Positions 4,954 to 23,022 of a DNA stretch of 23,022 nt are shown piece after piece (within the stretch, counting starts at the first letter, position 1; the number at the start of each line of letters is the position of its first letter). The translations under genes were made by a program, and so were the position numbers. The notes under the pieces are model-generated. The model saw only the letters and a list, made by a program, of their open reading frames with translations. It did no database searches and was not told where the DNA came from. Source of the DNA: an uncultured Deferribacteres bacterium (GTDB lineage Bacteria; Zhuqueibacterota; Zhuqueibacteria; Zhuqueibacterales; Geothermadaptataceae); the NCBI GenBank assembly GCA_964014485.1, contig CAXHAT010000133.1, positions 1 through 23,022 on the forward strand. Direction: 5' to 3'.

Positions 4954-4955
4954 CT

Positions 4956-6509: not shown

Positions 6510-6541
6510 AGAGCGTTTGTCGCCCTTGTTCCTTCGGTTTC

Positions 6542-7573: not shown

Positions 7574-7598
7574 TGACAAACCCTTACAGATCAAACAT

Positions 7599-7635
7599 AA
7601 AAAAGCAGATCGCCGTGAACGAACGATCTGCTTTT
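7599..7635 (-). terminator. Rho-independent terminator after the FadL-like gene
   Basis: AAAAGCAGATCG-N11-CGATCTGCTTTT perfect 12-bp stem; T-run on the minus strand. Confidence 0.8.
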
Positions 7636-7660
7636 AAATTTTCAAGAATTTTAGCCGTAA

Positions 7661-8962: not shown

Positions 8963-9000
8963 TCTCTGCTCCTTGCGAGAATATAGTCACAATTATTCAA

Positions 9001-9041
9001 TTTTAACTCTGACAGGGTTCTCAACCCTGTCAGAGTTAAAA
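9001..9041. repeat. Perfect 19-bp inverted repeat (REP-like, or bidirectional terminator / mRNA stabiliser)
   Basis: TTTTAACTCTGACAGGGTT-CTC-AACCCTGTCAGAGTTAAAA between two co-oriented genes. Confidence 0.8.
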
Positions 9042-9062
9042 AATATTCTAAAAAGTTGTCGA

Positions 9063-10067
9063 TTATTTTTTCTTGCTTCGACGACTAGACGATGAAGAAG
9101 AAGACCGGGAACCGGAACTCTTGCTGCTCGACGATTTGTTGGAGCTTCTACTTACAGACGATTTCGTGCTGCTTCGAGAACTGCTTGGGCGGGAAGCCTT
9201 TGCTTTTGACCGAGACGAAGAATTTGAAGATCTGCGGCTAACAGTTCGGGTGCTCTTGCCTGAAGACCTCGACCGTTCGCCTGATGATACGGCTGATTTC
9301 GAAGACGGCCGCCTGCTTGAACGTTTTACTCTCCGACTTGAATCGCTCGCACGATCTTTTTCCGTTCTCGCGCTGCTCACGGTCGTTGAAGAACCATCTC
9401 TTCGGCGGCGGCGAACATTATCATTTGTTTCCGTACTTGAGCCGCTGCGACTCACGACTGAGCGCGGCGCAGTGCGACTGCCGGTTCTTGCAACAACGGA
9501 TGACGTATTCGAAGGATCATCGCGATTGACGGTGCGCCTGCCAAAATTGCGTCTTTTGGGCTCGCGCGGAGTGTATGATGCGTAAGAACCGCCGTAATAA
9601 TACCTGTCTCTATACCCTCTGTAACCATAGTGAGAATAAGAAGGCCAGTACGCCCCGGCGTAAAACCAGGTTGACGGCCAATAGCGGTAGGAATAAAAAT
9701 CGTAGTAGGGGTCGTAATCAAAATACGGATCATAGCCGTAGCCCCAATATCGAGAGTAGATTGAGCGATGCCTGTTGCCGTAGCGAAAACGATAGCTCGG
9801 ATAAAAGAAAGAGTCCCAGAAGGGGTCGTAGGTGGAATAATGATGAACCGGGTAGCCGCCGTAAATGTAAATATCAACGTCGCCGTCATCTTCATCTACG
9901 TAGGCTTCTTCAACATACTCTTCGTCTTCATAGCCAGGTTCGGTTTCGACGACCTCAACGGGGTCTTCTTCCGAAACCGGCGGAGCAAGCTTTGTATAGC
10001 AGCCCGAAAGCATTACAGCGAAGAACAGCGTCAAAGAAAGACCTGTCATAGTTTTAAGTTTTAGCAT
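9063..10067 (-). CDS. Lipoprotein with acidic, Tyr-rich and Ser/Arg-rich low-complexity blocks
   Basis: Lipobox LSGC, RBS GAGGGAG, ordered blocks rich in E/D, then Y/W/P/G, then S/R/K. Confidence 0.85.
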   Translation of the reverse strand: MLKLKTMTGLSLTLFFAVMLSGCYTKLAPPVSEEDPVEVVETEPGYEDEEYVEEAYVDEDDGDVDIYIYGGYPVHHYSTYDPFWDSFFYPSYRFRYGNRHRSIYSRYWGYGYDPYFDYDPYYDFYSYRYWPSTWFYAGAYWPSYSHYGYRGYRDRYYYGGSYASYTPREPKRRNFGRRTVNRDDPSNTSSVVARTGSRTAPRSVVSRSGSSTETNDNVRRRRRDGSSTTVSSARTEKDRASDSSRRVKRSSRRPSSKSAVSSGERSRSSGKSTRTVSRRSSNSSSRSKAKASRPSSSRSSTKSSVSRSSNKSSSSKSSGSRSSSSSSSRRSKKK

Positions 10068-10149
10068 GCTGCAATCTCCCTCTTGAGTTAAAAGGTTGAG
10101 AAATTTCTCGCTTCTATTTGGAATCTTGCTCCAGGTTCCTCAAGCTTAG

Positions 10150-10166
10150 TACAATGAATGTGCCAA
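10150..10166 (-). promoter_or_regulatory. Candidate sigma54 (-24/-12) promoter
   Basis: Minus strand TTGGCAC-ATTCA-TTGTA; exact GG-N10-G spacing but -12 is GT instead of GC; about 80 nt upstream of the lipoprotein ATG. Confidence 0.4.
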
Positions 10167-10335
10167 CTAAGCATCCTTAGCAACATCTCAATTTTCAAAC
10201 TTGATCTTCTATAAAAGCTACCTGCGAACACAGGAAATCTGCGCAATTCGCGCTCGTATTATACAAAAGTTTTGCGTTGGAATGTGTTGAACTGCACACA
10301 CTGAAAACTCCCTAAACAGGGTAATACCATCAAAT

Positions 10336-10971
10336 TTACTTTGACAAATCGAACCGAATTGGCAAAGTCAGAAAATGAGTGGTCGGGACTCCGTTCTTTT
10401 TTGCAGGGATAAATCGGCTCGCTTTCACCGCCCTTACAGCCGCCGCGGCGCAAACTTCACTGCCTGTTGAATTCTCCAAAACAACAGCATCTACTACGCG
10501 TCCGCGTTCATTAATTTCTGCGCTTACCTTGACTTCGCCATGCACGCCTCTTTTCTTTTCCTTTTCAGGAAATTCCGGAATCACCCAAGCAATCGGACGC
10601 GGCGGCGTGATAACCGGAGCGCCCGCGCCTTCATCGCTGAATGCGCCGCTGCCGTCTTCACCGTTATCCGCAAATAAATCCCATTCCGTCGGCTCAATGG
10701 TCTCGTCTTCAGGAATCTCGTCATCTTCAGCCGGAACGGGAATCGCCGGTTTCTGCGGCGGCGGCTTGCGCTTGCCCTGCCGCGTAATCGGAACGTTTTC
10801 TAACTCAACGCGTGTAAATTCGATATCTTGCTCGACAGTTTCGACAAGATCAAACTCAGCAGCAATTCGAAACGATAGAATACAAAATACCAAGGCCGCA
10901 GCCGTGGCGACGTCTATGTTTCTTTTATAATTCTTTCTGTCTTGATTAATGTCTTGATTAATGTCTTGCAT
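10336..10971 (-). CDS. TonB family energy transducer protein
   Basis: N-terminal TM anchor, Pro-rich linker (KPPPQKPAIPVP), TonB C-domain PEFPEKEKKRGVHGEVKVSAEINERGRV...FIPAKKNG...LPIRFDL. Confidence 0.9.
   Translation of the reverse strand: MQDINQDINQDRKNYKRNIDVATAAALVFCILSFRIAAEFDLVETVEQDIEFTRVELENVPITRQGKRKPPPQKPAIPVPAEDDEIPEDETIEPTEWDLFADNGEDGSGAFSDEGAGAPVITPPRPIAWVIPEFPEKEKKRGVHGEVKVSAEINERGRVVDAVVLENSTGSEVCAAAAVRAVKASRFIPAKKNGVPTTHFLTLPIRFDLSK
10938..10968. repeat. 12-bp tandem repeat (about 2.6 copies) in the tonB 5' end
   Basis: TGTCTTGATTAA x2 plus TGTCTTG, encoding QDIN-QDIN-QD. Confidence 0.85.
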
Positions 10972-11014
10972 AGGCCTAAAAAACGGCTAAAACTACACTC
11001 AACAGCTCGGAAGC

Positions 11015-11043
11015 AAAATACGACTCAATGACGAAAGATTCAA
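11015..11043 (-). promoter_or_regulatory. Putative sigma70 promoter of tonB
   Basis: Minus strand TTGAAT-N17-TATTTT, 44 nt upstream of the ATG. Confidence 0.45.
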
Positions 11044-11084
11044 TTCTTTAAACAATTGCTTTCCTGAAAGTTCCGCCGATTGAC

Positions 11085-11876
11085 TCAGATCATCTCAAAC
11101 GATTTTACGAGGAGCCATCCAACCTTTCCGTCACGCAGCCGAATCTCGGCCCAATCACCCGCGATTTCCTGAATTTCGAACCTGGTTCCTTCATGTAAAA
11201 GAAAGACTTCGGTCCCCGTCTCGGAAGGTTCGCTTTTAATTTGAACTTCTTCTTGCAAAACGACGCCATGACGATCAGTTGCGGCTTTGTACCACCTGAA
11301 CGCCGCCATTGAAAGCGTAATGACAACAATCGCTAAGCTGACGTTAACGACTGCGCGATAAACAAAATTACGCGTCAGTCTCGGCGCAAAAAATCGAACG
11401 GAAAGAAAAATCATGAAAGCGGCGTAAGCGAATACAGCCACCCAAATAACCAAATTCAATCGCGGCGCCAAAAACAACGCTTCTACAAAACGAATCCACG
11501 CATCTTTTGGCGGCTCTGCAATCCGATCGACCACCGCTAATTGCGCAATTTCAAGATTAAATTGCACGTCTTCATTGTCTGGCGACAGTTTCAGCGCACG
11601 CTCATAATTTAAAATTGCTCGGCCAATTTCATTCAAACGATAATGCGCGTTTGCAAGATTATAGTAAATCTGCCAGTTTTCTTTACCGCTCGCTATAATC
11701 TCATTATACAAACTGACAGCTTGCGAAAACTCCCCTTTCTCATAAAATGAGTTCGCTTGATGAAACAGGCTCGTCGCTTCGTCAGCGAAGACAAAAACCG
11801 CCTGGAGCAAAATGCTAACAATTAAAACTTTTTGAGCTCTTTTGATTCTGTGTCCAACCTGAAAAAACCTTTTCAT
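11085..11876 (-). CDS. batE: BatE-like TPR + TM + SH3 domain protein
   Basis: TPR motif YYNLANAHYRLNEIGRAILNYERALKLSP, two TM helices, SH3b motif LHEGT...W.EIRL.DGKVGW. ATGA overlap with batD. Confidence 0.92.
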   Translation of the reverse strand: MKRFFQVGHRIKRAQKVLIVSILLQAVFVFADEATSLFHQANSFYEKGEFSQAVSLYNEIIASGKENWQIYYNLANAHYRLNEIGRAILNYERALKLSPDNEDVQFNLEIAQLAVVDRIAEPPKDAWIRFVEALFLAPRLNLVIWVAVFAYAAFMIFLSVRFFAPRLTRNFVYRAVVNVSLAIVVITLSMAAFRWYKAATDRHGVVLQEEVQIKSEPSETGTEVFLLHEGTRFEIQEIAGDWAEIRLRDGKVGWLLVKSFEMI

Positions 11877-13693
11877 AACGACTTCTCAACCTCCACGATC
11901 ACATCTTGCACTCGGCGGTAAAAATCATCCATCGCCGCTTCCGCCGCATCCGATTGTGCGAAGCGTTGAAAATCGCTCTCAGCCAACAAGCTCTGATATT
12001 TTTCTATAGTTTCGGAGCTCACGCCGCTTCCTTCCATTTGCCCCGCGATTTCTTCGCTCACAAGAGCCGATTCTTCGACGTTGAGCTTGTTGCCAATAAA
12101 TTTCGTCAACGCATTTGCGGCTTCTGTGTAGAATCTCGAGACGTCACCGCTGTCCTTCGCTTGCTTCGCATCTTTGAGTTGCTTTTGAGCGATTTTCTGC
12201 GCCTTTTTGCTGCGTGCGTAAGCAACATTCGAAGTCATGTGGTCGCTGCGATTTCGGTAGGCGACCCCGCCCGCAAGCACCAGCAATGGCAAAATCAACA
12301 TCGCCCAAAAACCGGCTTCGCGAAAAATGGTACGGTTCACATCAACAAAAACGCCCGGCGTTTTCTCGATAAACCGGATATCCTGGCCGACCATTCGCAC
12401 CTCTTCCTTCGAAAGGCCGTTGCCAAGATCAGCCGCCACTTTTGCGCCGCGAGAAATATTCAGCGTGACCGGCTTCGTCGAAAGCTGCGCATATTTTTGA
12501 TCCTTGGTATCGAAATATGAAAGCGCAACGGCGGGAATCGTAAACTCTCCGGCTCTGCGCGGAATCAATAAATATTCAAAGGTCTTTGACCCGCTGACCT
12601 TATTGCCGGCGCGATTGATCTTCTCGCTCGATTTTGGATCATACACTTCGAACGCGTCGGGGAAATTGATCTTCGGCGGGGAAAGCACGCGAATATTGCC
12701 GTCGCCGCTGACGGTAACCTTCAAAGTCACGGGCTCATTCGTTTCGGAACTTGTACGATCAACGGTTCCCTTCAATGAAAACTCGCCGACGAGACCGGAA
12801 AAATCTTTTGGCTTATTCGCGGGCAGCGGAGAAACTTCAATATCGATAGCTTCGGCAGTCATGCGGTGGGTAACGTTGCGGCCAAAAAACGGGTCGTCGA
12901 AAAACGAATCCAACAAGTCCCGTCTGCTGCGTCGTTCTTTGACCCGCACACTTGCTTCCAACCCTTGCGCCGGAATCTGCTTTTTGCCGGCGCTCGTTGG
13001 GAAAAGTGCGATTTTTTTCAACGTCGCTACACGCCAAGTCACACCGTCAATCGTCTCATTGTACATTTTCGGTTGATCAAAGCCCGGAAACTCTTCCGAC
13101 CAGAAATCGCCGTAATTCGGCTGATTGGTGAACGCATAATTCGTAACCTGGACGCGCATGTACAATTTATATTCGACGACGACCGGCTCGCCCTGATAAA
13201 CTTTGCGTTTGTTCGGCACGGCCTTGAAAAACAGACTTTCCGCCAAATCCTGTTGCTGCGCGCTGCGTGAACGGCCGCGCCCGCCGGTCTGCGACGTTCC
13301 CGCCGGAGCCTTTATGATTTCAACGGCAATCGGCTGGCTCTTATATTCTTTCCCTTCAAAATTGGCAACCACCGAGCCGATGGTAAATTTTCCAAGCTTG
13401 GTTGAAGTGAAATAATAAACCAACGTCTTGCTCATGGTTCTTTGCCCGTTGGCGATCTGCAAATTTGTTTGCGAACTGCTGCCTCCAAAAACAGCAAACG
13501 CCTCCATGTTCGGAAGCGTAACGTTATCAACCGAATTCGCATCGCCGCCGGTCAATTCGACATTGAGCTGAAACTGCCGATTCAAACCGATTTGCGTCCG
13601 GTCGACGGTGACGTTAATCTGCAAATCCTGCGTGAAGCCGGTGAACGGAAATGCGAGTAAAAATATAATTTTAAAGAGTCGTGATGTGTTCAT
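11873..13693 (-). CDS. batD: BatD family protein
   Basis: Signal peptide, three BatD repeats (VDRTQIG; KVYQGEPVVVEYKLY; GLVGEF...VSGDGN...FEVYDP...LIPRRAG), DIRFI, TM helix, helical C-domain. Confidence 0.95.
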   Translation of the reverse strand: MNTSRLFKIIFLLAFPFTGFTQDLQINVTVDRTQIGLNRQFQLNVELTGGDANSVDNVTLPNMEAFAVFGGSSSQTNLQIANGQRTMSKTLVYYFTSTKLGKFTIGSVVANFEGKEYKSQPIAVEIIKAPAGTSQTGGRGRSRSAQQQDLAESLFFKAVPNKRKVYQGEPVVVEYKLYMRVQVTNYAFTNQPNYGDFWSEEFPGFDQPKMYNETIDGVTWRVATLKKIALFPTSAGKKQIPAQGLEASVRVKERRSRRDLLDSFFDDPFFGRNVTHRMTAEAIDIEVSPLPANKPKDFSGLVGEFSLKGTVDRTSSETNEPVTLKVTVSGDGNIRVLSPPKINFPDAFEVYDPKSSEKINRAGNKVSGSKTFEYLLIPRRAGEFTIPAVALSYFDTKDQKYAQLSTKPVTLNISRGAKVAADLGNGLSKEEVRMVGQDIRFIEKTPGVFVDVNRTIFREAGFWAMLILPLLVLAGGVAYRNRSDHMTSNVAYARSKKAQKIAQKQLKDAKQAKDSGDVSRFYTEAANALTKFIGNKLNVEESALVSEEIAGQMEGSGVSSETIEKYQSLLAESDFQRFAQSDAAEAAMDDFYRRVQDVIVEVEKSL

Positions 13694-13715
13694 TCAAGTA
13701 TTTTTTCGTTGTCAA

Positions 13716-14345
13716 TTACCAATCCTTCGCTGAGCGTGGGCGGCCTTTGCCTTTCTTCTTGCGCTTCTTTTGTAAATCCTGTTCCTGACCCTGCAGCGCG
13801 TTCAACAAGCGCTCCGCTTCTTCCTTCGAAATTTCTTCCGGATTCGCCGCTTGTTGTTCCTGTTGCTGCTCTTCTTCAGGCTGCTGCTGATCTTGCTGGC
13901 CTTCTTGCTGTTCCGGCTGCTCTTGTTGTTCCTGCTCCTCTTGTTCTTCCTGTTCTTGCTCTTGTTCCTGCTGATCCTGACTTTCTTGCTGTTGTTCTTG
14001 TTGCTGCTGCTGTTCTTCTAAAATCTTTTCCAAAAGCTTTTGCAGCTTCTCATCATTGGGATGCGCCTCGAGCCCGGCTTCGATTTCCCGCACCGCGTCA
14101 GCGTACTTGCCGTTAATATAAAAATTCGCCGCATTGTGGAAGAACGTCTCAACTTGCGCTTGCCTCGAATGCGCAACACCAGTAATCAGCATCATCGCAA
14201 CAAGTACTGCCGCGCATTGAAGCGCCAAACGAGAACTTAAACCCCTACTACGAAATGTTGGATTAATAGAGTGCAGGGAAGTAAAATTCCAACGATCCAG
14301 CAATCCATTAATCCAACATTCCATTAATCCAAACACCTTTTTCAT
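13716..14345 (-). CDS. BatC-like protein 2 (TPR, Q/E-rich linker, BatC C-terminal motif)
   Basis: ATGA overlap with the upstream stop, single TPR, poly-Q/E linker, ISKEEAERLLNAL...KDW tail typical of BatC. Confidence 0.85.
   Translation of the reverse strand: MKKVFGLMECWINGLLDRWNFTSLHSINPTFRSRGLSSRLALQCAAVLVAMMLITGVAHSRQAQVETFFHNAANFYINGKYADAVREIEAGLEAHPNDEKLQKLLEKILEEQQQQQEQQQESQDQQEQEQEQEEQEEQEQQEQPEQQEGQQDQQQPEEEQQQEQQAANPEEISKEEAERLLNALQGQEQDLQKKRKKKGKGRPRSAKDW
14252..14334. repeat. Inverted octamer-repeat element inside the 5' end of the batC-like gene
   Basis: Six tandem (A/T)TCCAnnn octamers at 14287-14334; 14252-14274 is a 20/23 inverted copy of 14300-14322. Confidence 0.8.
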
Positions 14346-15085
14346 TGCTTCGCGCCTCCCGTCTCGATTTCGACAATACTCTGAATCCGGGTCATGAAAT
14401 CCTGAAACGCCGCGACAGTCTCGTCGACTTTGAGACCGGCCTGCATTAAGTCATGCGCGCGTTTGTACTCCCGTTGCGCCACGAATGCCTCGGCCTGTGC
14501 TTTTAGCTTTTTCGCATACTCCGACGGCTCGACTTTCTTCTCTTGCTGTTGCTGATTTTGATCCTGCTCTTGCTGATCCGCGTTTTCCTTCAATTTCGAA
14601 CGCACGAATTCGAGATTATACTTCGCGTCTTCATCATCAGGATTGAGCTTGAGCGCGTCTTTGTAGGCCAAAATGCTCTCGGGCAGTTTGTTGAGCCGGA
14701 ACAGGCAGTTGCCCTTGTTGTAATAAATCTCACTTTGAAAAGAAGCGTCATCCGCGCCTTTCAGCGCCTTGTCATACGATTTCAGCGCTTCTTCATAATT
14801 CTTCTTTTCATAAAGCGTGTTCGCGATATTGTAATCGATCAGCGGCGAAGCGGGATTGCTCAACTGCGCGTCACGATACGCATTATTCGCCGCATCGAAC
14901 TTGCCTTCTTCGAAAAGTTTGTTCCCTTCGAGAACCTTGTCGCGTCCGTTGTTTTGGGCAAAAACGTTCGTTTCTGTAAGCAAGCTGAAGCTCAAGCTTA
15001 TGAGGATCAACAATTCAGAAAATCTTTTTTGCATAACATATCGTTTTGGCTGAACTGGTTTTTGTACTATAACAGTATTTGTCAT
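14342..15085 (-). CDS. batC: BatC-like TPR protein 1
   Basis: GNKLFEEGKFDAANNAY, YNIANTLY, YYNKGNCLF, YKDALKLNPDDEDAKYNLE. Start at 15085 (1 nt after the upstream stop) or 15034 (MQKRF signal peptide). Confidence 0.85.
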   Translation of the reverse strand: MTNTVIVQKPVQPKRYVMQKRFSELLILISLSFSLLTETNVFAQNNGRDKVLEGNKLFEEGKFDAANNAYRDAQLSNPASPLIDYNIANTLYEKKNYEEALKSYDKALKGADDASFQSEIYYNKGNCLFRLNKLPESILAYKDALKLNPDDEDAKYNLEFVRSKLKENADQQEQDQNQQQQEKKVEPSEYAKKLKAQAEAFVAQREYKRAHDLMQAGLKVDETVAAFQDFMTRIQSIVEIETGGAKQ

Positions 15086-15086
15086 T

Positions 15087-15593
15087 TTAACTGCTGATTT
15101 CGTCGCCTTGTATTTTTTCCCACTTGACAAACCCCTCAACTATATCTTGTCTACTAGTCCCAAAACCTACAAATTTACCATTCAAGGATCGCGCATCTGG
15201 GGACAACTTTAGAAAGAAAATACCAAACTGCTGTATATTTTTGTTCTTATGGTTATATTCAAATTTCAAAAATGTCGAATCGTAAAAGCCGCCGATAAGA
15301 GCAAAATGCCCATGATAACCTATATTTTTACTCCAGACTTCAAGATCACCACGTATCTTACCAAACGAACGGCTAAACTTCACTTTATAAGTATAACTAC
15401 GTTTCTTCGTATCAGGTACATCAACATCTCGCCCTTTTCCTTCCCACAAACCTTGGATAGCATTCAGTCTAACCTGATTTTGCGGTAAATATACCCGTTG
15501 AAAACCAGACCGTCTCCCAAGCCAATGATGTAGGAATACTCCAACTATACCAAGTAAACCTGTAACTAACGCAGCCTGTATAGTAATATCCAT
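15087..15593 (-). CDS. AT-rich single-TM protein with predicted beta-barrel (Cap15 / SMODS-associated S-2TM-beta-like)
   Basis: N-terminal TM helix then alternating beta strands: IQGLWEG, LKFEY, QFGIFFLKL, LNGKFVG, EGFVKWEK. Sampled 60-nt lines are 32-38% GC. Confidence 0.6.
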   Translation of the reverse strand: MDITIQAALVTGLLGIVGVFLHHWLGRRSGFQRVYLPQNQVRLNAIQGLWEGKGRDVDVPDTKKRSYTYKVKFSRSFGKIRGDLEVWSKNIGYHGHFALIGGFYDSTFLKFEYNHKNKNIQQFGIFFLKLSPDARSLNGKFVGFGTSRQDIVEGFVKWEKIQGDEISS

Positions 15594-15658
15594 GGTATCG
15601 ATTATATTGAAACGATTCTGTCAAGTATCATAATGCTCATTTAAACCGGTACATCTTT

Positions 15659-15931
15659 TTAAAATAGAATTCTATTCTGATGACTATCACTCAACCCATG
15701 GGATTCAACAATTTCAAGAACTTTTTGAAGTCGCTCGGTAGCTTTATCGCCATAATTGATCCGCCGTAGAACTTCCATGTGCAACAGCCGTTCGTGCGGC
15801 GTGCGCGAACGCCAATACGCTTTTTCGTCATCATCATCAAAACGCGAAGTCACGGAAAAAACGGTTTTATCGAGTTTGAGTGATGGAAATTCGTTTGTCA
15901 AATCTTTGTCTTTCATTTTTTGCTTAACCAC
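15659..15931 (-). CDS. Small protein resembling the partner gene of minimal nucleotidyltransferase TA-like pairs
   Basis: Pattern LDKTVFSV...DEKAYWRSRTPHERL..ME.LR.INYG....RLQKVLEIVE; overlaps the upstream stop. Family call from memory of the motif. Confidence 0.65.
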   Translation of the reverse strand: MVKQKMKDKDLTNEFPSLKLDKTVFSVTSRFDDDDEKAYWRSRTPHERLLHMEVLRRINYGDKATERLQKVLEIVESHGLSDSHQNRILF

Positions 15932-16268
15932 GCCCCTCGGCGATTGCGTTCGCGAGCGCCGTTGTCTTCATTTCCTGCTCAACCGCCGCCCATTCCCGAT
16001 TCCACGTGTCCAAATCAAAGTCCGGGTCTTCCGGCGCGTTACGCAAAGCGTCCGCTAACGAGCCGCTCGCCGGTCGAAAGCTGTTTGGATTTTTGGGAGT
16101 CGCCTGGATTTCCGCGACAACTTGTTCCGGCGTTGGGTAATCGTCTTCCGCCGCGAGCGCGCGGGTCAATATCTCAATGACCATCTCTTGCAACGAAAGC
16201 TTGCTTGCGTTCGCTTGATCCTGGAGTTGAGATTCCAGCGTTTTCGGTAAAGTTATGTTAATCGCCAT
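15924..16268 (-). CDS. RHH/CopG-like DNA-binding protein, putative antitoxin
   Basis: N-terminus INITLPKTLESQLQDQANASKLSLQEMVIEILTRAL fits a ribbon-helix-helix; acidic C-terminus; RBS GAGG. Confidence 0.7.
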   Translation of the reverse strand: MAINITLPKTLESQLQDQANASKLSLQEMVIEILTRALAAEDDYPTPEQVVAEIQATPKNPNSFRPASGSLADALRNAPEDPDFDLDTWNREWAAVEQEMKTTALANAIAEGRG

Positions 16269-16307
16269 TTCAAAACCTCATCAATTAAAGTAGAATGGCT
16301 AAATCTC

Positions 16308-16535
16308 TCATACAAAAGCCGCGACGTCCACTGATTTTGCCGCCGCGAAGCTTTTACGATGCAGTTTGATACGTTCAACTTCATGCAACGTCTCTGCTGT
16401 AAAATAACTCTCGCCACACACAGAGCAACTCACCATGGGAATATCTTCGATGACCAGCAACTCTCTCCCTTTCCTATGAGCTTCCGTTATTTTTCTAATA
16501 AGCGCATTGGGCTTGCCGCAAAGTTCACAGATCAT
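16308..16535 (-). CDS. YgiT-type (MqsA N-terminal) zinc finger protein
   Basis: MICELCG...LLVIEDIPMVSCSVCGESYFTAET, two CxxC pairs, 75 aa from ATG 16535, no HTH domain. Confidence 0.9.
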   Translation of the reverse strand: MICELCGKPNALIRKITEAHRKGRELLVIEDIPMVSCSVCGESYFTAETLHEVERIKLHRKSFAAAKSVDVAAFV

Positions 16536-16610
16536 AACTTTTTCTCTACCTCGCAGGGTTAGGCAAAATAGATTCCTCCTGACTGACAAAACGGGAACAA
16601 GTCAAAAAAA

Positions 16611-16651
16611 CTCTGCGAAAACTCCGCGTTTCAGCGCCCTTTGCGTTGAAA
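16611..16651. repeat. REP-like short dispersed repeat (CTCTGCG-type units)
   Basis: CTCTGCG..CTCCGCG..TCAGCG..CTTTGCG: four degenerate tandem units just downstream of the batB stop. Confidence 0.55.
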
Positions 16652-16666
16652 CATCCGTTCCAAAAA

Positions 16667-17698
16667 TCAAGCAAACCGTCCCTTCCACGACTCATCCACC
16701 TTCCGGCGTTCGGAGATGAGCATTTCGAGAATCAGGAAAGCCAGCGCGATGATGAGAAAGTACTGGAAACGGTCTTCATATTGCGAAAAACGAACGGCGC
16801 CGAGTTCTTTTTTTTCCATCTGTGAAATATCTTCGTAAATCAGCTTCAGCTCTTGCTCGGTTCCGCTGGCGCGATAGAATTTGCCGCCGGTGTTGAGTGC
16901 GATTTTGCGTAAGCTCAATTCGTCAAGTTTTGTCAAAACCACTTCGCCGCTTCGGTCTTTCTTGAATCCGGTTTGCCGTCCGGCGTTATCAAAAACGGGA
17001 ATCGGCACGCCCTCCGGCGAGCCAACGCCGACCGTATAAATGACGACCCCTTCCGTTTCGGCGCGTTCAACCAGCGGATCGAGTTCGCCGCCGTGATTTT
17101 CGCCGTCCGTCATCAAAATCAATACCTTGTGTTTGCGCTCCTCGGAAATGAAGGCGTTCATCGAAACTTCGAGCGCGCGGTCGATGGCGGTACCGGGTTC
17201 AGGAATAATGCCGGGTTCAAGGCTTTCCAAAAAAAGCCGCGCCGCGCCGTAATCCAGCGTCATCGGACAGTGCAAGAAAGCGTCTCCGGCGAACGCCACA
17301 ATACCGATCCGGTCGCCGCGTAGTTCTTTCAGCAGCGATGAGACCTCGTGCTTGGCCTTTTCTAACCGTGAGGGCGGCACATCCTTGGCGAACATCGAGA
17401 GCGACACATCCACAGCGACGACGATATCTACGCCTTCGCGCTGTACTTCTTCCAGCTTGGTGCCGATTTGCGGGCGCGCCAGTGCAAGGATAAAAAATGC
17501 AATCGAAGCCAACAAAAAACCGGCTTTCAAAATCTGCCGTCGCCGACTCACACCAAGCGTCAATTTTTGCAGAAGCTCAACGTTGCCAAAGCGCTCCATC
17601 GCCTTCGATTTCCAGCGGAACACGAAAACATAAAACGCGATTCCCACGGGAATCAAAAAGAGCAGGTAGAGAATATCCGGATTCGCAAATCTGACCAT
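16667..17698 (-). CDS. batB: BatB VWA domain protein
   Basis: MVRFANP N-terminus, ALARPQIG, MIDAS DVSLSM, PSRLEKAK, DRIGIVAFAG, TDGENH, YEDRFQYFL. Confidence 0.95.
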   Translation of the reverse strand: MVRFANPDILYLLFLIPVGIAFYVFVFRWKSKAMERFGNVELLQKLTLGVSRRRQILKAGFLLASIAFFILALARPQIGTKLEEVQREGVDIVVAVDVSLSMFAKDVPPSRLEKAKHEVSSLLKELRGDRIGIVAFAGDAFLHCPMTLDYGAARLFLESLEPGIIPEPGTAIDRALEVSMNAFISEERKHKVLILMTDGENHGGELDPLVERAETEGVVIYTVGVGSPEGVPIPVFDNAGRQTGFKKDRSGEVVLTKLDELSLRKIALNTGGKFYRASGTEQELKLIYEDISQMEKKELGAVRFSQYEDRFQYFLIIALAFLILEMLISERRKVDESWKGRFA

Positions 17699-17700
17699 GA

Positions 17701-18300
17701 TTAAGAGCTTTTCTGAATTCCTTTAAAATATTGATCGAGAAATTGTCGTAACGGGAGCATCGCCGGGTTTTCCAAATCCCAATGATCGATCTTGGAATAA
17801 TCGCGTTTTTTCTCCTTCGCGAAATCGTTCTCTCGTTTCGGCAGTAACGCTCCAAGATAGGCAAAAATCTTCGTCTTCATATCGGGGACGGTGTAACGCG
17901 GATTCTTTTTAAGGCAGCCTTGATAAGTGTCAAAACAATCGAAAATCATTTGATGCTGTGCGTTGATTATTTGGCAGAGCAGGTCTTCCAGTTCACCGGC
18001 GTTTTTGTTATCCGGGAACAAGAACAGCTCAAAATTCAGCTTCTCTTCCGCTTTACTTTTGAGAATCTCTTCGCGTCGATTTTTCGGCTCATCGTCCGCA
18101 TCGAAAATGACAAGATTGGTTCCGCCGCCGTCAGTATTTTCTGTAAACTTGTTTATGTACAACTTGAGCTTATCTTTTCATCCTGTTGCAATCAGATCAT
18201 ATTCCCGGCCAACAGCAAGGCCGTACTTAAATTGAATATAATCCGAAAGAAACTTTTTATCGGCGTCGCCTTCAACGAATAATCGGATTTTCCCCTGCAT
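17701..18300 (-). pseudogene. TOPRIM-like DUF3226-type protein interrupted by an in-frame TGA (codon 41)
   Basis: ATG at 18300 directly after the ATPase TAG: MQGKIRLFVEGDADKKFLSDYIQFKYGLAVGREYDLIATG*KDKLKLYINKF...; TGA at 18178-18180; the same frame continues into ORF 17701..18162 with IFDAD and GELEDLL motifs. Confidence 0.85.
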
Positions 18301-19395
18301 CTAACGAACTTCCACACCGTGTTCAAACAAATGTTCAATTTGTTGAAAATCATAAGGATACGCCTTAACAAGGTCTCTCCGGAGCTTGCGGATCGTGTAG
18401 CTGTGAACGTCGTCTTTAAAATCCCGAAAATCCGGCTGTGAAAGAACGTTTGTCAGATGCGCCAAAGCCTCGCTGCTGTGCGAGGTCGCGAAAACCTGCA
18501 CGGCATTCTCCTTCGCGGTGAGAAGAATGCTTTTCCACAATTCTTCGAGCGACGAATAATGAAAGCCGTTTTCGATTTCATCAATAAGAATAACGCTGTT
18601 TTTATTATAAACGATAGCGGTGAGAATAGATAACAACCTGACCGCGCCGTCTCCCAGGATATTCAGGGGTAAAAGTCGATCAAAGCTTTCTCCCAAATCG
18701 ACGTATATCATTCCGTTCGAACCCAGCGTAATGTCTTGTAAAAGCGGTTCGAGCTTCTGTAAAGGCTTCAGTAACCTTGTTTTAAGTTTTCTTTGAAGAA
18801 CCTTGTCTAATCTGTCAGGCAGCCCCACGTGCGCCGTGCCGGTAGAAAGAAAAACCGCGATCAATTCTTCTTTATAATTCTTTGATGGCTTGACCTTGAG
18901 TTCCCCGTTTTCGAAGGTTATTTCAAGTGAATAATCCTTCTGTGTTTTCCTGCCGTTCTTTCTGAGAGAAAACGCGAACTTCAATCCACTAACTAAATCT
19001 TGTTGTGTCGAGAGACCGAGATCAAATTTATTCACGCCGCCCTGTCGCACTTCCTGAATGTTTTTTTGAATATGAAGTGTTGTATCAAGAGGTGAGATAG
19101 ATACTGAACGCGTTAAACCCCCGGCAGTGTTCAGTTTCGCGGAAATTCGATTATTATAATCCAGTTTATAAAAAAAGAATCTGAAATCGTCTGCTTCAGA
19201 AAAAATAAGATTTCTGAGTTGGTTTAAGGCAAACAATATCTTGGGATTTGACATCCCCAACGTCAAAAAAAGCGCCTCCAGGATCGACGTTTTCCCGCAA
19301 TTGTTTTCGCCGTAAAACAAATTCAGCGGTCTAAAATCATCAATTTCGAGTGACTTGATCCCCCGAAAGTTGGTCACTTCCAATGAGCTTATCAT
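18301..19395 (-). CDS. ABC-type ATPase of the AAA_15/AAA_21 (AbiEii/OLD/AriA-like) group
   Basis: ISSLEVTNFRGIK, Walker A GENNCGKTSILEAL, signature LGDG, Walker B/D-loop ILIDEIENGFH, H-loop QVFATSHS, C-terminal EVR. Confidence 0.92.
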   Translation of the reverse strand: MISSLEVTNFRGIKSLEIDDFRPLNLFYGENNCGKTSILEALFLTLGMSNPKILFALNQLRNLIFSEADDFRFFFYKLDYNNRISAKLNTAGGLTRSVSISPLDTTLHIQKNIQEVRQGGVNKFDLGLSTQQDLVSGLKFAFSLRKNGRKTQKDYSLEITFENGELKVKPSKNYKEELIAVFLSTGTAHVGLPDRLDKVLQRKLKTRLLKPLQKLEPLLQDITLGSNGMIYVDLGESFDRLLPLNILGDGAVRLLSILTAIVYNKNSVILIDEIENGFHYSSLEELWKSILLTAKENAVQVFATSHSSEALAHLTNVLSQPDFRDFKDDVHSYTIRKLRRDLVKAYPYDFQQIEHLFEHGVEVR

Positions 19396-19444
19396 AGCGT
19401 CACACTTGTTGGGTTCACTACCTGACACTTTTTCCTGCTGTAAG

Positions 19445-19612
19445 TTTATGTCACCCCTTTCGGGGTTTCAGGGAAAGGATTTTCGCGCATTTTCTATAAT
19501 CATTCCACCCCTGTCGGGGTTCTTCTGCGAGAAAAACCCCGACAGGGGTGGAATGATTATAGAAAAAACCGAACCAAATCATCTCGATCAAACTCCGAAG
19601 GAGTGGTATAAA
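19445..19612. repeat. REPIN-like nested palindrome (four REP hairpins)
   Basis: Perfect 32-bp inverted repeat 19490-19521/19535-19566 plus outer degenerate pair 19445-19468/19590-19612; each unit has a CACCCC-N-GGGGTT hairpin. Confidence 0.9.
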
Positions 19613-19656
19613 AAGTGGCAGGTAGTGAATTGTTGGATTGGCTTTAAAGCTAAACC

Positions 19657-20649
19657 TCACGGAATCTTCCTAAACTTTGTATTCGATAGCACAATTTCCA
19701 GCAGCAATACCGCCAGCGCCGGCCACAACCATGAGACGAAAATTTCGCTGAATCGGGTGTATTCTTTCACCTCGATTTTCGTTTTTTCAAGCTGGTCGAT
19801 CTGCTCAAAAATACCGCGCAAGCTCTGCGCATCGGTGGCGCGGAAATACTGGCCGCTGGTGATGTCCGCGACTTCATTCAAAACGTCTTCATCGATGTCA
19901 ACCGGCATGCGCACGTAACGTTTGCCAAAAAACGGATCATCCACCGGGTAGAGCGCCTCGCCGTGCGTGCCAACGCCAACGGTGTAAACGCGCACGCCCA
20001 TCGCTTTCGCCACTTTCGCCGCCGTAACCGGATCGATCTCGCCGCGATTGCTGCGGCCGTCCGTGAGCAAAATCACCACCTTGCTCTTGGCCTCGCTTTC
20101 ACGCAAACGGTTGGTCGCGTTCGCAATCGCCAGGCCGATGGCCGTGCCGTCTTCGATCATGCCCACGTCGATGTCTTTCATAAATCCGAGCAGGATGCCG
20201 TAATCCAGCGTTAGCGGGCACTGGGTAAAACTTTTGGCGGCAAAAACGACCATGCCGATACGGTCATTATTGCGGCCCTTGATAAAATCCGCCGCCACGC
20301 CCTTTGCCGCCTGAATCCGATTTTTCGGTTTGAAATCTTCCGCGAGCATGCTGCTTGAAGTGTCGAGCGCCAGAATAATGTCCACGCCCTCAGTAATCAC
20401 TTCTTCCTCTGTATGCCCGCTCTGCGGACGCGCCAGTGCAAAGATGACGAGCGTCAAAACCAGGAGCCGCAGAAAGAAAAGTCCTTGTCGCAGACGCTGG
20501 CTCAAAGGCGCCTTCGTTGTTTGAAACAACCCAACGTTTGAGTAGCGCAACGTCGTAACGCGACGCTTCCTTTTCTTAAAATGCCAAAAAGCGATCAACG
20601 GAATGAAGGCGAGAAGAATGAGAAATTCCGGGTAAGCAAAACGCATCAT
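19657..20649 (-). CDS. batA: BatA VWA domain protein
   Basis: MRFAYP, ALARPQ, MIDAS DTSSSMLAEDFKPKNR, DGTAIGLAIANATNRL, SKVVILLTDG, GQYFRATD. Confidence 0.96.
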   Translation of the reverse strand: MMRFAYPEFLILLAFIPLIAFWHFKKRKRRVTTLRYSNVGLFQTTKAPLSQRLRQGLFFLRLLVLTLVIFALARPQSGHTEEEVITEGVDIILALDTSSSMLAEDFKPKNRIQAAKGVAADFIKGRNNDRIGMVVFAAKSFTQCPLTLDYGILLGFMKDIDVGMIEDGTAIGLAIANATNRLRESEAKSKVVILLTDGRSNRGEIDPVTAAKVAKAMGVRVYTVGVGTHGEALYPVDDPFFGKRYVRMPVDIDEDVLNEVADITSGQYFRATDAQSLRGIFEQIDQLEKTKIEVKEYTRFSEIFVSWLWPALAVLLLEIVLSNTKFRKIP

Positions 20650-21920
20650 CAGGCGGGAACTCCCTTTTCTTCGGTTTGTTTTTCAGGGTTCGGCGTTTCA
20701 AGCTCATTCTCATCAGACGATGCGTCATCGTGCGGCTGATTTTCAACGGGAGTCGCGACAGGCTTGGTCAAGTCGACCAGAGTAAACGCTTTTTGCATCA
20801 CCGTTTCCGCCTCTTCTTCCGCCGAATCATAGCGCGCGAATTTCGCCAAATCGCTTACGCTGAGCATTTCTTCAAGAATGTCCGAATGTTTCCGCAAAAC
20901 CGGTTCTTGCGCGAGCATGTCCATCACTTCGTAAGTCGTCAACTCCAACGCGGGAATGTGAAAACGTCGCGAAATATAAGTGCGGATGATTTCGGAGAGT
21001 CGCACAAAATATTCTTCCACCCTGCCGTCTGCAAAAAGCTTCTCTTCGCGCAATTTTGCCAACGCTTCAAACGCCAACTCGTGCGCCGGACGCGGCGGCG
21101 GAGGCGCTTTTTCAAACATGCCCTGACCACGCTTTTTCGCGCGATAATACCAAATCGCCAGCCCGATGAGCGTCAGCCCTAGCACAGCGAAAGCGATATA
21201 AAAACCTATAGTTATCCAGTCGCGCTCAATCACGGCTTGCGCTTTCAGGCCGCGCAGATCGCCTTCTTCGCTCGGCTTCACGGATTCGACATAGATTTCA
21301 ATCGGATCAGTCTGGATACGCTGACTGGCCGTGTCGCCTTCGACAAAATAATCGATAATGAGCGGCGGGATAATGAACGCGCCGGTGTCGAATGTTGAGA
21401 TCGAATATTTGACGACTTCTTCAATGCCGCTGTCCAATTTCAGCGGCTCTGCCAGGCTATAATCACGAATCTCAAAAGCGCCGAGATTGCTCCCTAACGA
21501 CGGCCACGAAATCTGCACTTTCTCGCCGTGCAAAACCTTGACGCGATATTCGATAACGTCGCCAATCTTGATCGTGCTTCTGTCAACTTCCGATGAAACG
21601 CTGAGGGCGGTTTCTTCTTGAGAAAAAGCGGGATTTGTTAAGAAGAAACATGCGCTTAAAAAAAGCCCCAAACGTAACGCAGACATCCTTGTCTGCGAGT
21701 TCTTGGAAGATCTTTGACACGCAGACAAGGATGTCTGCGCTACGCTGCCAGGCGACCACGCTTTCTCGTTACCACGCTTTGCGTGGTAATGCAGCCCCGG
21801 ACGCTTTGCGTCCATTTCTGGATTAGAAACTCTTTTTATATGAATCGACGCGAAGCGTCTAAGCCTGCATTCCAACGCAAAGCATTGGAACGAGAGAATC
21901 AAATCATTGAATCTTATCAT
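20649..21920 (-). CDS. Bat-operon membrane protein upstream of batA (BatD-like N-domain, TM helix, helical C-domain)
   Basis: VDRSTIKIGD, ISTFDTGAFIIPP, TM helix, PPPPRPAHELAFEAL, LSEIIRTYISRRF, ALELTT, DLAKFARY. TGATG overlap with batA. Start uncertain (21923, 21920 or 21686). Confidence 0.88.
   Translation of the reverse strand: MIRFNDLILSFQCFALECRLRRFASIHIKRVSNPEMDAKRPGLHYHAKRGNEKAWSPGSVAQTSLSACQRSSKNSQTRMSALRLGLFLSACFFLTNPAFSQEETALSVSSEVDRSTIKIGDVIEYRVKVLHGEKVQISWPSLGSNLGAFEIRDYSLAEPLKLDSGIEEVVKYSISTFDTGAFIIPPLIIDYFVEGDTASQRIQTDPIEIYVESVKPSEEGDLRGLKAQAVIERDWITIGFYIAFAVLGLTLIGLAIWYYRAKKRGQGMFEKAPPPPRPAHELAFEALAKLREEKLFADGRVEEYFVRLSEIIRTYISRRFHIPALELTTYEVMDMLAQEPVLRKHSDILEEMLSVSDLAKFARYDSAEEEAETVMQKAFTLVDLTKPVATPVENQPHDDASSDENELETPNPEKQTEEKGVPA
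21673..21744. repeat. GTAG-type REP doublet (REPIN)
   Basis: CGTAACGCAGACATCCTTGTCTGCG-N22-CGCAGACAAGGATGTCTGCGCTACG, 24/25 inverted; each arm is itself a hairpin. Confidence 0.9.
21764..21895. repeat. Second REPIN-like element (four ACGC-NNN-GCGT type hairpins)
   Basis: TCTCGTTACCACGCTTTGCGTGGTAATGCAG + GGACGCTTTGCGTCC ... GACGCGAAGCGTC + CTGCATTCCAACGCAAAGCATTGGAACGAGA. Confidence 0.88.
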
Positions 21921-22830
21921 CATAAACCTTGACATTTTCAGCGCGCATCATTCTGTCGATGAGTCTTTCGTAGGCGCGCTGTTGTTTGGCGCGGATGTAG
22001 TCTTGCGTCACTTGCGAGCGCACTTCTTCAAACGGCTGCGGATTTGAAACGCCGGTCGAATCGTCGCTCACGCTGTATTTTTCGATGTTGGCCTGGTAGT
22101 AAATCTCCAAATCTTCTTCCTCGTAGCCCGCGCTCTGCGCCAATTCTTCCTGCAAAAGCTTCTGCACCATCACGTTTTTCTTGGCGATAAACGCTGACTC
22201 GATCACTTCCTCGTTGCGATCCAGGCCTTTGCGTTTCGCGGTGTTGTAGAGCAAATCCGTCGCGATCATCTGCTTGAGAAATTCGACTTTCTGTGATCGA
22301 TCCTTGATTTGCGACATCATGAATGGCGGCAGTTGGCTCATCTCGTAATCGAGGTCGCCGGTGGTGATTTGGCGGTCGCCGATCTCCGCGATGATTTCAC
22401 CAGGACGTTTTTTTCGCACGGCGTCTTCGTTCAACGTCGTCGCTTCGTCCAATGCTTGCTTCGCGTCAGTGCTGCGCTGGAGACGTTCGAGACATTCGAT
22501 GATGCGTTTCTCAGACTCGTCGACAATGTCGCTCTCCGGGTGGAAGTGTTTGACGCGAATGTAGTAGGCCAGCGCGTTTTCATAGTCCTTCACGCGGTCA
22601 AAATAGATATTGCCGATGTTGAAACTGATGTTGGCCTGTTCTTCTGGCGGCAGCTTGTAATTGTTCAAATAACGGTCGTACTCGGCGATGCTCTGCTCGA
22701 ACAATTGCTGGTTGTACAATTCATTCGCCAGACTGCGAACCGCCTCGGCAGGCAAGCCGTGCGGCTCTTGCTGACAGCCCAAAGCGGCGAGTAATAAAAT
22801 TGGCGTGAGTTTAGAGAAACGCTTTTTCAT
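21904..22830 (-). CDS. Lipoprotein with TPR repeats fused to a PrsA/SurA-like chaperone domain
   Basis: Lipobox ALGC; TPRs (FNIGNIYFD...YENALAYY); IIAEIGDRQITTGDL...LLYNTAKRKGLD; PFEEVRSQV; VKVYDD. Confidence 0.85.
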   Translation of the reverse strand: MKKRFSKLTPILLLAALGCQQEPHGLPAEAVRSLANELYNQQLFEQSIAEYDRYLNNYKLPPEEQANISFNIGNIYFDRVKDYENALAYYIRVKHFHPESDIVDESEKRIIECLERLQRSTDAKQALDEATTLNEDAVRKKRPGEIIAEIGDRQITTGDLDYEMSQLPPFMMSQIKDRSQKVEFLKQMIATDLLYNTAKRKGLDRNEEVIESAFIAKKNVMVQKLLQEELAQSAGYEEEDLEIYYQANIEKYSVSDDSTGVSNPQPFEEVRSQVTQDYIRAKQQRAYERLIDRMMRAENVKVYDDKIQ

Positions 22831-22832
22831 GG

Positions 22833-23021
22833 TTATGCCGAATTATAATTGTGAAGTTTCCATTTTTCTAAATTGTTTAGAACAGCGGGGCCGAGATCAA
22901 TGTGCCTTCTTAAATGGAACAGGCAAAATGCCCAAAAACTACTTTTGTGATTGTTTTTGCAGTCTAGTTCACTACTGTCCCGGTGTTGTAAACTTCTGTT
23001 CTCCGTAAGCCTATTTATTTT
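22833..23021 (-). CDS. Possible 3' end of an AT-rich upstream gene (partial)
   Basis: Frame open for 62 codons from the window edge (KINRLTENRS...WKLHNYNSA*), with TAA 2 nt before the ATG at 22830. Confidence 0.45.
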   Translation of the reverse strand, partial: KINRLTENRSLQHRDSSELDCKNNHKSSFWAFCLFHLRRHIDLGPAVLNNLEKWKLHNYNSA

Positions 23022-23022
23022 A

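Follow-up and report, generated by a model that had tools for sequence, protein, structure and literature searches.

Two blocks of foreign genes, one carrying an AbiL-like pair, interrupt the bat operon of an uncultured Deferribacteres bacterium

According to the section of PMC3557215 that cites Tang et al. (1999), the bat genes of Bacteroides fragilis are five contiguous open reading frames (ORFs). The passages of Price, Arkin & Alm (2006; PMC1480536) on operon change report that foreign and ORFan genes have inserted into native operons of Escherichia coli and Bacillus subtilis and are expressed there from the native promoter, that insertions inside operons are much rarer than additions at their ends, and that the mechanism is unknown. 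Known defence hotspots, as portrayed in parts of PMC10250203 and PMC10121019, lie between transcription units, often by tRNA or transfer-messenger RNA (tmRNA) genes, hold 1 to 224 kb and are variable across >1600 genomes, and the relevant passage of a 2026 review (PMC13064643) groups AbiL with PARIS as systems that pair an ABC-ATPase with a Toprim/OLD nuclease. Here we analyzed a stretch of 23,022 nt (hereafter the window) from an uncultured Deferribacteres bacterium (contig CAXHAT010000133.1, assembly GCA_964014485.1), in which a bat cluster is interrupted twice, between batA and batB by an AbiL-like gene pair (block 1, abiLi and abiLii) and between batB and batC by four small genes (block 2, encoding a YgiT-type zinc-ribbon protein, c114, c85 and c168).

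The cluster is of the bat type by its content, as it comprises, on a single strand, tandem von Willebrand factor A (VWA) genes with the BatA N-terminal double-transmembrane (TM) region, a tetratricopeptide-repeat (TPR) BatC, a BatD and a TPR/SH3 BatE, and its gene order agrees with that of eight related loci (L001 to L008). It departs from a bat operon in contiguity: batA (19657..20649, minus strand; 330 aa, VWA 3.6e-23, BatA 1.2e-12 in Pfam, NF047508 2.3e-63) and batB (16667..17698, minus strand; 343 aa, VWA plus BatA_N, NF047506 7.7e-47) are 1958 nt apart, and batB is separated from batC by 1581 nt if the latter starts at ATG 15085 or by 1632 nt if it starts at ATG 15034. A scan of a genome collection with BatB as the query yielded 20 loci, of which L001 to L011 were comparable, while L012 to L020 were excluded, being VWA pairs from actinomycetes with no match to batC or batD. 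The best BatB match was found in a KSB1 metagenome-assembled genome (MAG), with 58% identity; a Caldithrix MAG came next (51%), and Zixibacteria and Bacteroidales MAGs after it. Among the comparable loci, batA and batB were neighbors in 10 of 11 (the exception being L009), with a gap of 11 to 96 nt in the eight FCB-type loci L001 to L008, or of at most 165 nt should L001 use a later start; batB and batC overlapped by 4 nt, lay at most 116 nt apart or were fused in all 10 loci that extended that far. None of the six cargo proteins had a homologue in any of the 20 loci (tblastn, E ≤ 1e-5), and defence or toxin-antitoxin (TA) cargo was present at these two junctions in 0 of the 11 comparable relatives, all of which are distant (≤59% amino-acid identity). 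The initial annotation of this DNA, which had read the two blocks as interruptions of batA-batB and batB-batC, was thus borne out by the contiguity of the relatives.

The blocks also differ from the operon in composition. The GC content at third codon positions (GC3) of batA to batD is 0.57 to 0.67 (0.66, 0.62, 0.57 and 0.59), while it is 0.48 for abiLi, 0.49 for abiLii, 0.46 for the YgiT gene, 0.38 for c85 and 0.31 for c168; c114, at 0.63, is host-like and the sole one of the six cargo genes outside the range of 0.31 to 0.49. The composition changes sharply at the block edges. Both blocks are lineage-specific, compositionally foreign insertions into an otherwise contiguous operon. Such sharp shifts, in a sequence derived from a metagenome, would also be expected if the blocks had been mis-joined into the operon during assembly. 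We regard such a chimera as extremely improbable: identical bat and cargo proteins are recorded on contigs of up to 23,095 nt, each protein occurs in one to four of NCBI, ENA, Logan and MGnify, the junctions are clean and the flanking ORFs intact, and two chimeric joins would be required for each block.

All cargo lies on the operon strand and the window holds no integrase or transposase, two points of the initial annotation with which our results agree: every cargo ORF is on the minus strand, 0 of 10 plus-strand ORFs of the region had a Pfam match at E ≤ 0.01, and Pfam scans of the window returned neither type of enzyme. A phage database gave no match for the whole region, PHROGs yielded nothing informative, and no tRNA or tmRNA that might have served as an integration target was found in the window. 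Direct repeats flanking the cargo blocks were not above chance, with 1 and 0 shared 8-mers against shuffle means of 1.07 and 0.81. The absence of a target-site duplication, also noted initially, therefore holds for both blocks; it does not hold for the palindromic element between batA and abiLi, which is flanked by an 8-nt direct repeat matched at 7 of 8 positions.

The blocks had further been said to end 1 to 2 nt before the next bat start. This is so at batB, where the abiLii stop lies 2 nt ahead of the ATG (TAA-TC-ATG, 17698) and where, in 7 of 8 loci, the alignment of BatB with its relatives begins at residue 1 or 2. At batC, the start is probably 15034 rather than the ATG at 15085, as judged from gene calls and alignment: public calls use ATG 15034 (230 aa) or yield a shorter protein of 213 aa, none uses 15085, and the signal peptides of relatives align with the residues after 15034. 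Given these calls and this alignment, c168 probably ends 52 nt before batC.

To account for these data, we favor, with moderate confidence, ordinary intra-operon horizontal insertions that have partly decayed, as opposed to a demonstrated repeat-driven cassette system. The bat (MoxR/VWA-type "aerotolerance") cluster of an FCB-group bacterium would have acquired foreign accessory genes in two short spacers. One insertion would have brought in a two-gene AbiL-like module (ABC-ATPase plus DUF3226/Toprim-like nuclease), at first 37 nt past the batA stop, and a 216-bp element resembling a miniature inverted-repeat transposable element (MITE) would have entered the batA-abiLi spacer later, in a separate event. 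The other insertion would be a mosaic of a YgiT zinc ribbon, a ribbon-helix-helix (RHH)-like gene, a small conserved gene and a Cap15-like TM/beta-barrel gene. Tolerance would have been limited to sense-oriented, terminator-poor insertions, since these leave batB to batE transcribed; the cargo lies in sense orientation, and no strong terminator precedes batB or batC. Antisense or terminating insertions would be polar on batB to batE, so the co-orientation of the cargo would be an effect of survivorship or strand bias rather than the signature of cassette machinery. Moreover, all genes from 6542 to 22830 are on the minus strand and the GC skew is negative throughout, and in such a unidirectional 16-kb neighborhood co-orientation says little in favor of a cassette mechanism. 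The cargo would probably be transcribed by read-through from upstream promoters; in Leptospira, the portion of PMC3557215 on the bat genes suggests that these also have promoters of their own, so that read-through of the cargo should not be assumed. Part of the cargo would be decaying, as suggested by a nonsense codon in the nuclease gene and by antitoxin-like genes without toxins, and this decay fits relics better than it fits an actively exchanged cassette array. As in the cases presented in the cited sections of PMC1480536, the window cargo is sense-oriented inside a native operon, is presumably served by the native promoter and shows no scars of mobile elements; unlike the cases in those sections, the window shows a single operon with two internal insertions and with cargo that is defence- or TA-like.

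The same features bear on a different explanation, that both spacers form a truly variable hotspot, with recurrent acquisition and with turnover by homologous recombination through the bat flanks, no repeat being involved. The lack of an integrase or transposase and of a duplication flanking the blocks agrees with this, as do two insertions within 3 kb of one operon, and the make-up of block 2 mildly favors it: its GC3 values, in gene order 0.46, 0.63, 0.38 and 0.31, form a mosaic of at least three composition classes within 1.6 kb, which could have arisen by several acquisitions in a single spacer. The core defence hotspots of Pseudomonas are likewise without hallmarks of mobile genetic elements, and flank-mediated exchange is proposed for them in the pertinent part of PMC10250203. 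Within what those sources describe, the window resembles core-gene-flanked hotspots (P. aeruginosa cDHS1/2, PMC10250203; E. coli, PMC10121019) in having defence genes of atypical composition between core genes and, as at cDHS, no obvious machinery of a mobile element. It differs from the known hotspots in that the sites are operon-internal spacers of ~20 to 40 nt, the inserts are 1.6 to 2 kb and variability is unobserved. The cargo-free junctions of all 11 comparable, distant relatives argue against a hotspot, and so does cargo that appears decayed, not freshly exchanged. We therefore consider a true hotspot rather unlikely, though still the most serious competitor of simple insertion.

Several observations count against our favored explanation of ordinary, partly decayed insertions. 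A true hotspot, with acquisition recurring at one spacer, would fit the GC3 mosaic of block 2 as well. The nearest relative, at 58% BatB identity, is too distant to reveal stability or variability of the cargo, and BatA, BatB and BatD each form a 90%-identity cluster with a single member. Database records place the YgiT gene, c114 and c168 on 6 contigs, versus 3 for BatA, BatB and BatD, a difference that is not interpretable without context; the higher count could mean that block-2 cargo occurs elsewhere too. Two relatives carry interruptions of their own. In the Caldithrix MAG (L002), an ABC-transporter set of 4.6 kb in the same orientation (ABC_tran, ABC-2 permease, ABC_transp_aux and DUF4340) lies at 4390-8987 between the DUF4381-like gene and batA; in a Pseudomonadota MAG (L009), antisense purA and two unknown genes (5186-9815) lie between batA and batB, and 4.7 kb separates batA from a batB-batC fusion, these two genes forming one fused ORF in L009 to L011. 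These interruptions indicate that the bat cluster is not immune to insertion elsewhere.

A bolder extension, in which promoterless immune or TA genes dock repeatedly, and without an integrase, in the spacers of a stress operon (bat/MoxR), with sense-only capture, successive acquisition and decay, would amount to an undescribed form of operon-internal cassette uptake. We consider it quite improbable; were it true, cargo expression would be coupled to the envelope/oxidative-stress response. If close relatives were to show turnover at both spacers, the defence-hotspot concept would extend to operon-internal sites and immune-gene expression would be linked to a stress operon. On the evidence alone, the locus is a further, unsurprising case of foreign genes in a native operon, useful as an annotated example with an AbiL-type system in a KSB1-like bacterium, and it makes two modest additions: a clean MITE, and a TM-barrel family without a name, some relatives of which are fused to TIR domains.

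Block 1 encodes an abiLi-like ABC/SMC-type ATPase of 364 aa (18301..19395, minus strand), apparently intact, with matches to PADLOC AbiLi and to Pfam AAA_15 and AAA_21; against the PADLOC AbiLi model PDLC02336 it scored 9.5e-63 over profile positions 1-340 of 340. The abiLii-like gene (17701..18300, minus strand) adjoins it directly, the coordinates being contiguous, and encodes a DUF3226 (Toprim-like) protein that matched PADLOC AbiLii (PDLC02338) at 1.6e-08 and PF11536. Noticeably, this second frame contains a TGA at 18178-18180, its codon 41. When the stop was read through as X, the DUF3226 (PF11536) alignment spanned it with an E-value of 1.5e-12, and the TGA column holds Gly in 10 of 10 aligned homologues, while a restart at TTG 18162 would leave out an N-terminal segment with the invariant V-E-G...D columns. 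For the truncated product of 153 aa, two sequence variants are on record, one from 2 contigs and the other from 4, and the TGA is therefore not a read error. Of what defines AbiL, the ATPase and the adjacent AbiLii/DUF3226 partner are both present, and the two frames are not both intact. Judged from sequence, block 1 is an AbiL-like defence pair with an intact ATPase and a nonsense-interrupted partner; the system may have kept its sensor after inactivation of the effector.

The comparison with AbiL and PARIS points both ways. As in those systems, an ABC/SMC-like ATPase gene is followed by a gene for a small Toprim/OLD-like protein, and there are profile matches to both AbiL components. Unlike them, the window pair has a nonsense codon at codon 41 of the nuclease gene, is located in a housekeeping operon of the chromosome instead of on a plasmid, and is known from its genes alone. 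The AbiLi relatives seen on plasmids share only ~27% identity with it (144 enterobacterial plasmid records).

The spacer between batA and abiLi holds the MITE-like element of 216 bp (19414-19629, without strand; 19406..19637 with its flanking repeats), recognized by its terminal inverted repeats, target-site duplication and fold. MITEs are non-autonomous derivatives of DDE transposons. The inverted repeats of the element are 20 nt long and matched at 19 of 20 positions (19414-19433 and 19610-19629), and the 8-nt direct repeats (7/8) lie directly outside them, at 19406-19413 and 19630-19637. An inner palindrome with 37-nt arms occupies 19490-19566, and the DNA fold of the element reaches -66.2 kcal/mol (z = -11.75), a stability attained by 0 of 200 shuffles. 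When the whole window was scanned for terminal repeats with a duplication, five inverted-repeat pairs were obtained, one of which had a flanking duplication, and 0 of 200 shuffles yielded this signature. With the element and one copy of the duplication removed, a batA-abiLi spacer of 37 nt remains, which falls within the range of native batA-batB spacers in the relatives; hence, the element is best read as an independent transposition, i.e., as a DDE-type MITE that landed separately in this spacer, rather than as the opening part of the cargo block. Like MITEs, it is short (216 bp) and non-coding and has 20-nt terminal inverted repeats, an 8-nt flanking direct repeat and strong hairpin potential; a 69-aa ORF that runs across it had no family match in Pfam, PADLOC or NCBIfam. 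Unlike typical MITEs, it is seen as one copy, with no second copy in the window, the 20 related loci or plasmids, and no cognate transposase was identified.

The initial annotation had each block opening with a repeat like those of repetitive extragenic palindromes (REPs) and had proposed REP-directed single-stranded DNA events mediated by RAYT transposases. Neither part of this proposal was supported. In block 1, the palindrome at 19445-19612 is single-copy in the window and unlike those of other spacers (blastn-short). The head of block 2 is the 131-nt batB-ygiT spacer (16536..16666, minus strand), which includes 16611-16651 and is unstructured and unrepeated: its fold has a z of -1.2, with 25 of 200 shuffles equally stable, and 16611-16651 had no further copy in the window or the 20 related loci by blastn-short. 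What this spacer does contain is a weak 5-bp terminator-like hairpin with a T-run; the terminator-like site at 16627..16615 comes from a scan whose total was not above shuffles (promoters and terminators, 14 versus 11.7±3.6 and 23 versus 18.8±4.0, respectively), and no inference was drawn from these totals.

Palindromes with arms of at least 16 nt occur in six spacers of the window, namely between the gene for a 308-aa lipoprotein and the DUF4381-like gene, between batA and abiLi, at the batC-g209 boundary, and at 9001-9041, 7594-7642 and 2829-2856. One of the six adjoins cargo and the other five have none, so that these structures are distributed independently of inserted genes, a pattern that the initial annotation itself had named as refuting its proposal. 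No resemblance was detected among the spacer palindromes, the only blastn-short matches in the window and the 20 loci being self-matches and matches within single elements. It could be argued that hairpins at the block heads are substrates of HUH enzymes (RAYT or IS200/605-like) that direct single-strand insertion or exchange of cargo, since a very stable hairpin lies directly upstream of abiLi and the window is rich in intergenic palindromes. Yet block 2 has no significant hairpin or repeat, five other spacers carry palindromes without cargo, none of the palindromes is repeated in the window or similar to another, and Pfam detected no Y1/RAYT transposase gene in the window. The one block with a palindromic head has an element with terminal inverted repeats and a target duplication, which is the opposite of HUH-type elements such as IS200/IS605 and REPs. 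We thus hold an HUH-driven process to be very unlikely. The locus resembles REPs and bacterial interspersed mosaic elements (BIMEs) in its intergenic palindromes, some of which are inverted pairs of small hairpins (21673-21744); it differs from REP/RAYT systems in that no palindrome is repeated within 23 kb, no RAYT gene is present in the window and the cargo-side element bears terminal inverted repeats with a target-site duplication.

The tight packing of small co-oriented ORFs, some of them TA-like, with spacers of 0 to 131 nt, brings to mind an integron-like remnant (cluster of attC sites lacking an integron integrase [CALIN]), in which promoterless co-oriented cassettes with attC-like sites would have been served by an integrase encoded elsewhere. 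Judged by structure, no more than a single spacer contains a palindrome of attC scale, and it ends in 20-nt terminal inverted repeats with a direct, not an inverted, flanking repeat. The other spacers between cargo genes (39, 7, 65 and 52 nt) are without a reported inverted repeat, and neither IntI nor an integrase domain was found in the window. An origin of this kind appears to have hardly any likelihood.

While the label of defence or TA cargo is firm for block 1, it is only suggestive for block 2. The first gene of block 2 (16308..16535, minus strand) encodes a YgiT-type zinc-ribbon protein of 75 aa that is like the N-terminal half of MqsA; it matched TIGR03831 at 2.3e-11, with 43.7 bits against a cutoff of 20.2. 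No helix-turn-helix domain was detected in the 75-aa protein, as TIGR03830 gave 23.3 against a cutoff of 61.8 and Pfam MqsA_antitoxin remained below its cutoff. An MqsR-type toxin gene is also absent beside it: the upstream spacer of 131 nt has no room for an ORF, and the gene on the downstream side is RHH-like. This downstream gene, c114 (15924..16268, minus strand), has an RHH-like (FitA/HicB/Arc-like) N-terminus, with an E-value of 0.023 for FitA-like_RHH, an atlas feature score of 0.90 and structural TM-scores of 0.37 to 0.46 over the first ~46 to 74 residues; a sequence search of the PDB gave nothing below an E-value of 0.06. The RHH-like N-terminus is at best a lead.

The third gene, c85 (15659..15916, minus strand), belongs to a conserved family of ~70 aa without annotation, as found by homologue search. 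The family numbers 29 proteins, 28 of them besides the window copy, with 52 to 71% identity and no Pfam domain. c85 itself had no Pfam match, a PDB profile search returned only spurious matches to de novo proteins, and its AlphaFold2 (AF2) model was poor (pLDDT 63). We also observed an invariant motif around RRINYG in the family, and a C-terminal extension of 10 aa in the window copy.

The last gene, c168 (15087..15593, minus strand), was modeled by AF2 with a pLDDT of 91.6 as an N-terminal TM helix (residues 3-32) followed by an 8-stranded beta-barrel. An exhaustive HMMER search found 406 representative clusters of this family at E ≤ 1e-3, while a word-indexed search found only c168 itself, and no match was obtained on plasmids. 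Among 19 longer relatives scanned, 4 carried TIR domains, 1 carried a nucleotide cyclase and 14 had no Pfam domain; the TIR types fused to the barrel were TIR_2, ThsB-TIR and CAP12/Pycsar-TIR. PADLOC "2TM effector" models gave weak matches from 3 of 60 family members. In Foldseek, c168 matched generic small barrels, with Cap15 (7n34) at rank 4 (E-value, 6e-4; target-normalized TM-score, 0.62). Like Cap15, the cyclic-dinucleotide receptor effector of CBASS (PDB 7N34), c168 thus combines a TM helix with a minimal 8-stranded barrel. In contrast to Cap15, it has no match to PF18153 (no Pfam match at all at E ≤ 5), there is no CD-NTase or cyclase gene in the window, and the fold is generic, with de novo barrels and nitrobindins scoring alike. 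Given the structural model and the fused relatives, the c168 family makes a reasonable candidate for a defence module, effector or sensor, that has not yet been described.

As assigned by Pfam and NCBIfam, the minus-strand order of the whole cluster is a TPR/SurA-like lipoprotein gene, a spacer, a DUF4381/BatD-like gene, batA, the MITE-like element, abiLi, abiLii and batB, then the four small genes, batC, g209, batD and batE, and finally a TonB-C gene. The first visible gene of the cluster (21904..22830, minus strand) encodes the 308-aa lipoprotein, with weak Pfam matches to TPR_16 and SurA_N_3; it is syntenic in L001 and L002 and shares 47% identity with the protein at the equivalent position of L001 (tblastn). 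Upstream of it, 22831-23022 is non-coding only and holds a promoter-like site (10/12 matches) at 22870..22842. L001 has a DUF58 gene directly upstream of its cluster, while the MoxR/DUF58 part is not visible in the window. The DUF4381-like/BatD-like gene (20649..21671, minus strand) was assigned from weak Pfam matches and synteny with L001 to L007 and probably starts at TTG 21671, which would give a lipobox-like N-terminus. At the other end of the cluster, batD (11873..13693, minus strand) matched PF13584 at 6.4e-41, and batE (11085..11876, minus strand), with TPR and SH3 domains, was assigned from Pfam and from synteny with the relatives.

The 232-nt spacer between the first two genes (21672..21903, minus strand; fold z = -12.1) contains no cargo, and an inverted-repeat search located two palindromes in it, at 21764-21895 (132 nt, 53-nt arms) and at 21673-21744 (72 nt, 28-nt arms). 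Each of their arms holds a small hairpin of its own, in a BIME-like layout. The equivalent spacer in L001 and L002 has no palindrome, nor do the bat spacers of these two loci. At 9001-9041, a perfect palindrome with 19-nt arms lies in the spacer after a gene of 334 aa; its core is similar to the small hairpins within the batA-abiLi element without matching them. An Rfam scan of the window gave nothing at gathering thresholds, and at E ≤ 1 only sub-threshold eukaryotic microRNA-precursor models on long hairpins, which are generic hairpin matches.

A last feature concerns batC itself. Its N-terminal TPR part (14342..15034, minus strand; 230 aa from ATG 15034) matched NF047507 at 7e-23 and is without the canonical C-terminus, which is conserved in 6 of 6 aligned relatives. 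The next gene, g209 (13716..14345, minus strand), encodes a Q/E-rich protein with the canonical BatC C-terminal motif, and its end matched the C-terminus of the L001 BatC in BLASTP (16 of 31 residues identical; E-value, 4e-5). A palindrome with 24-nt arms lies at 14254-14320, at the boundary of the two genes (5′ end of g209). batC looks split or partly duplicated over 13716-14640 of the window, and the batC-g209 arrangement may represent a third disruption of the same operon.

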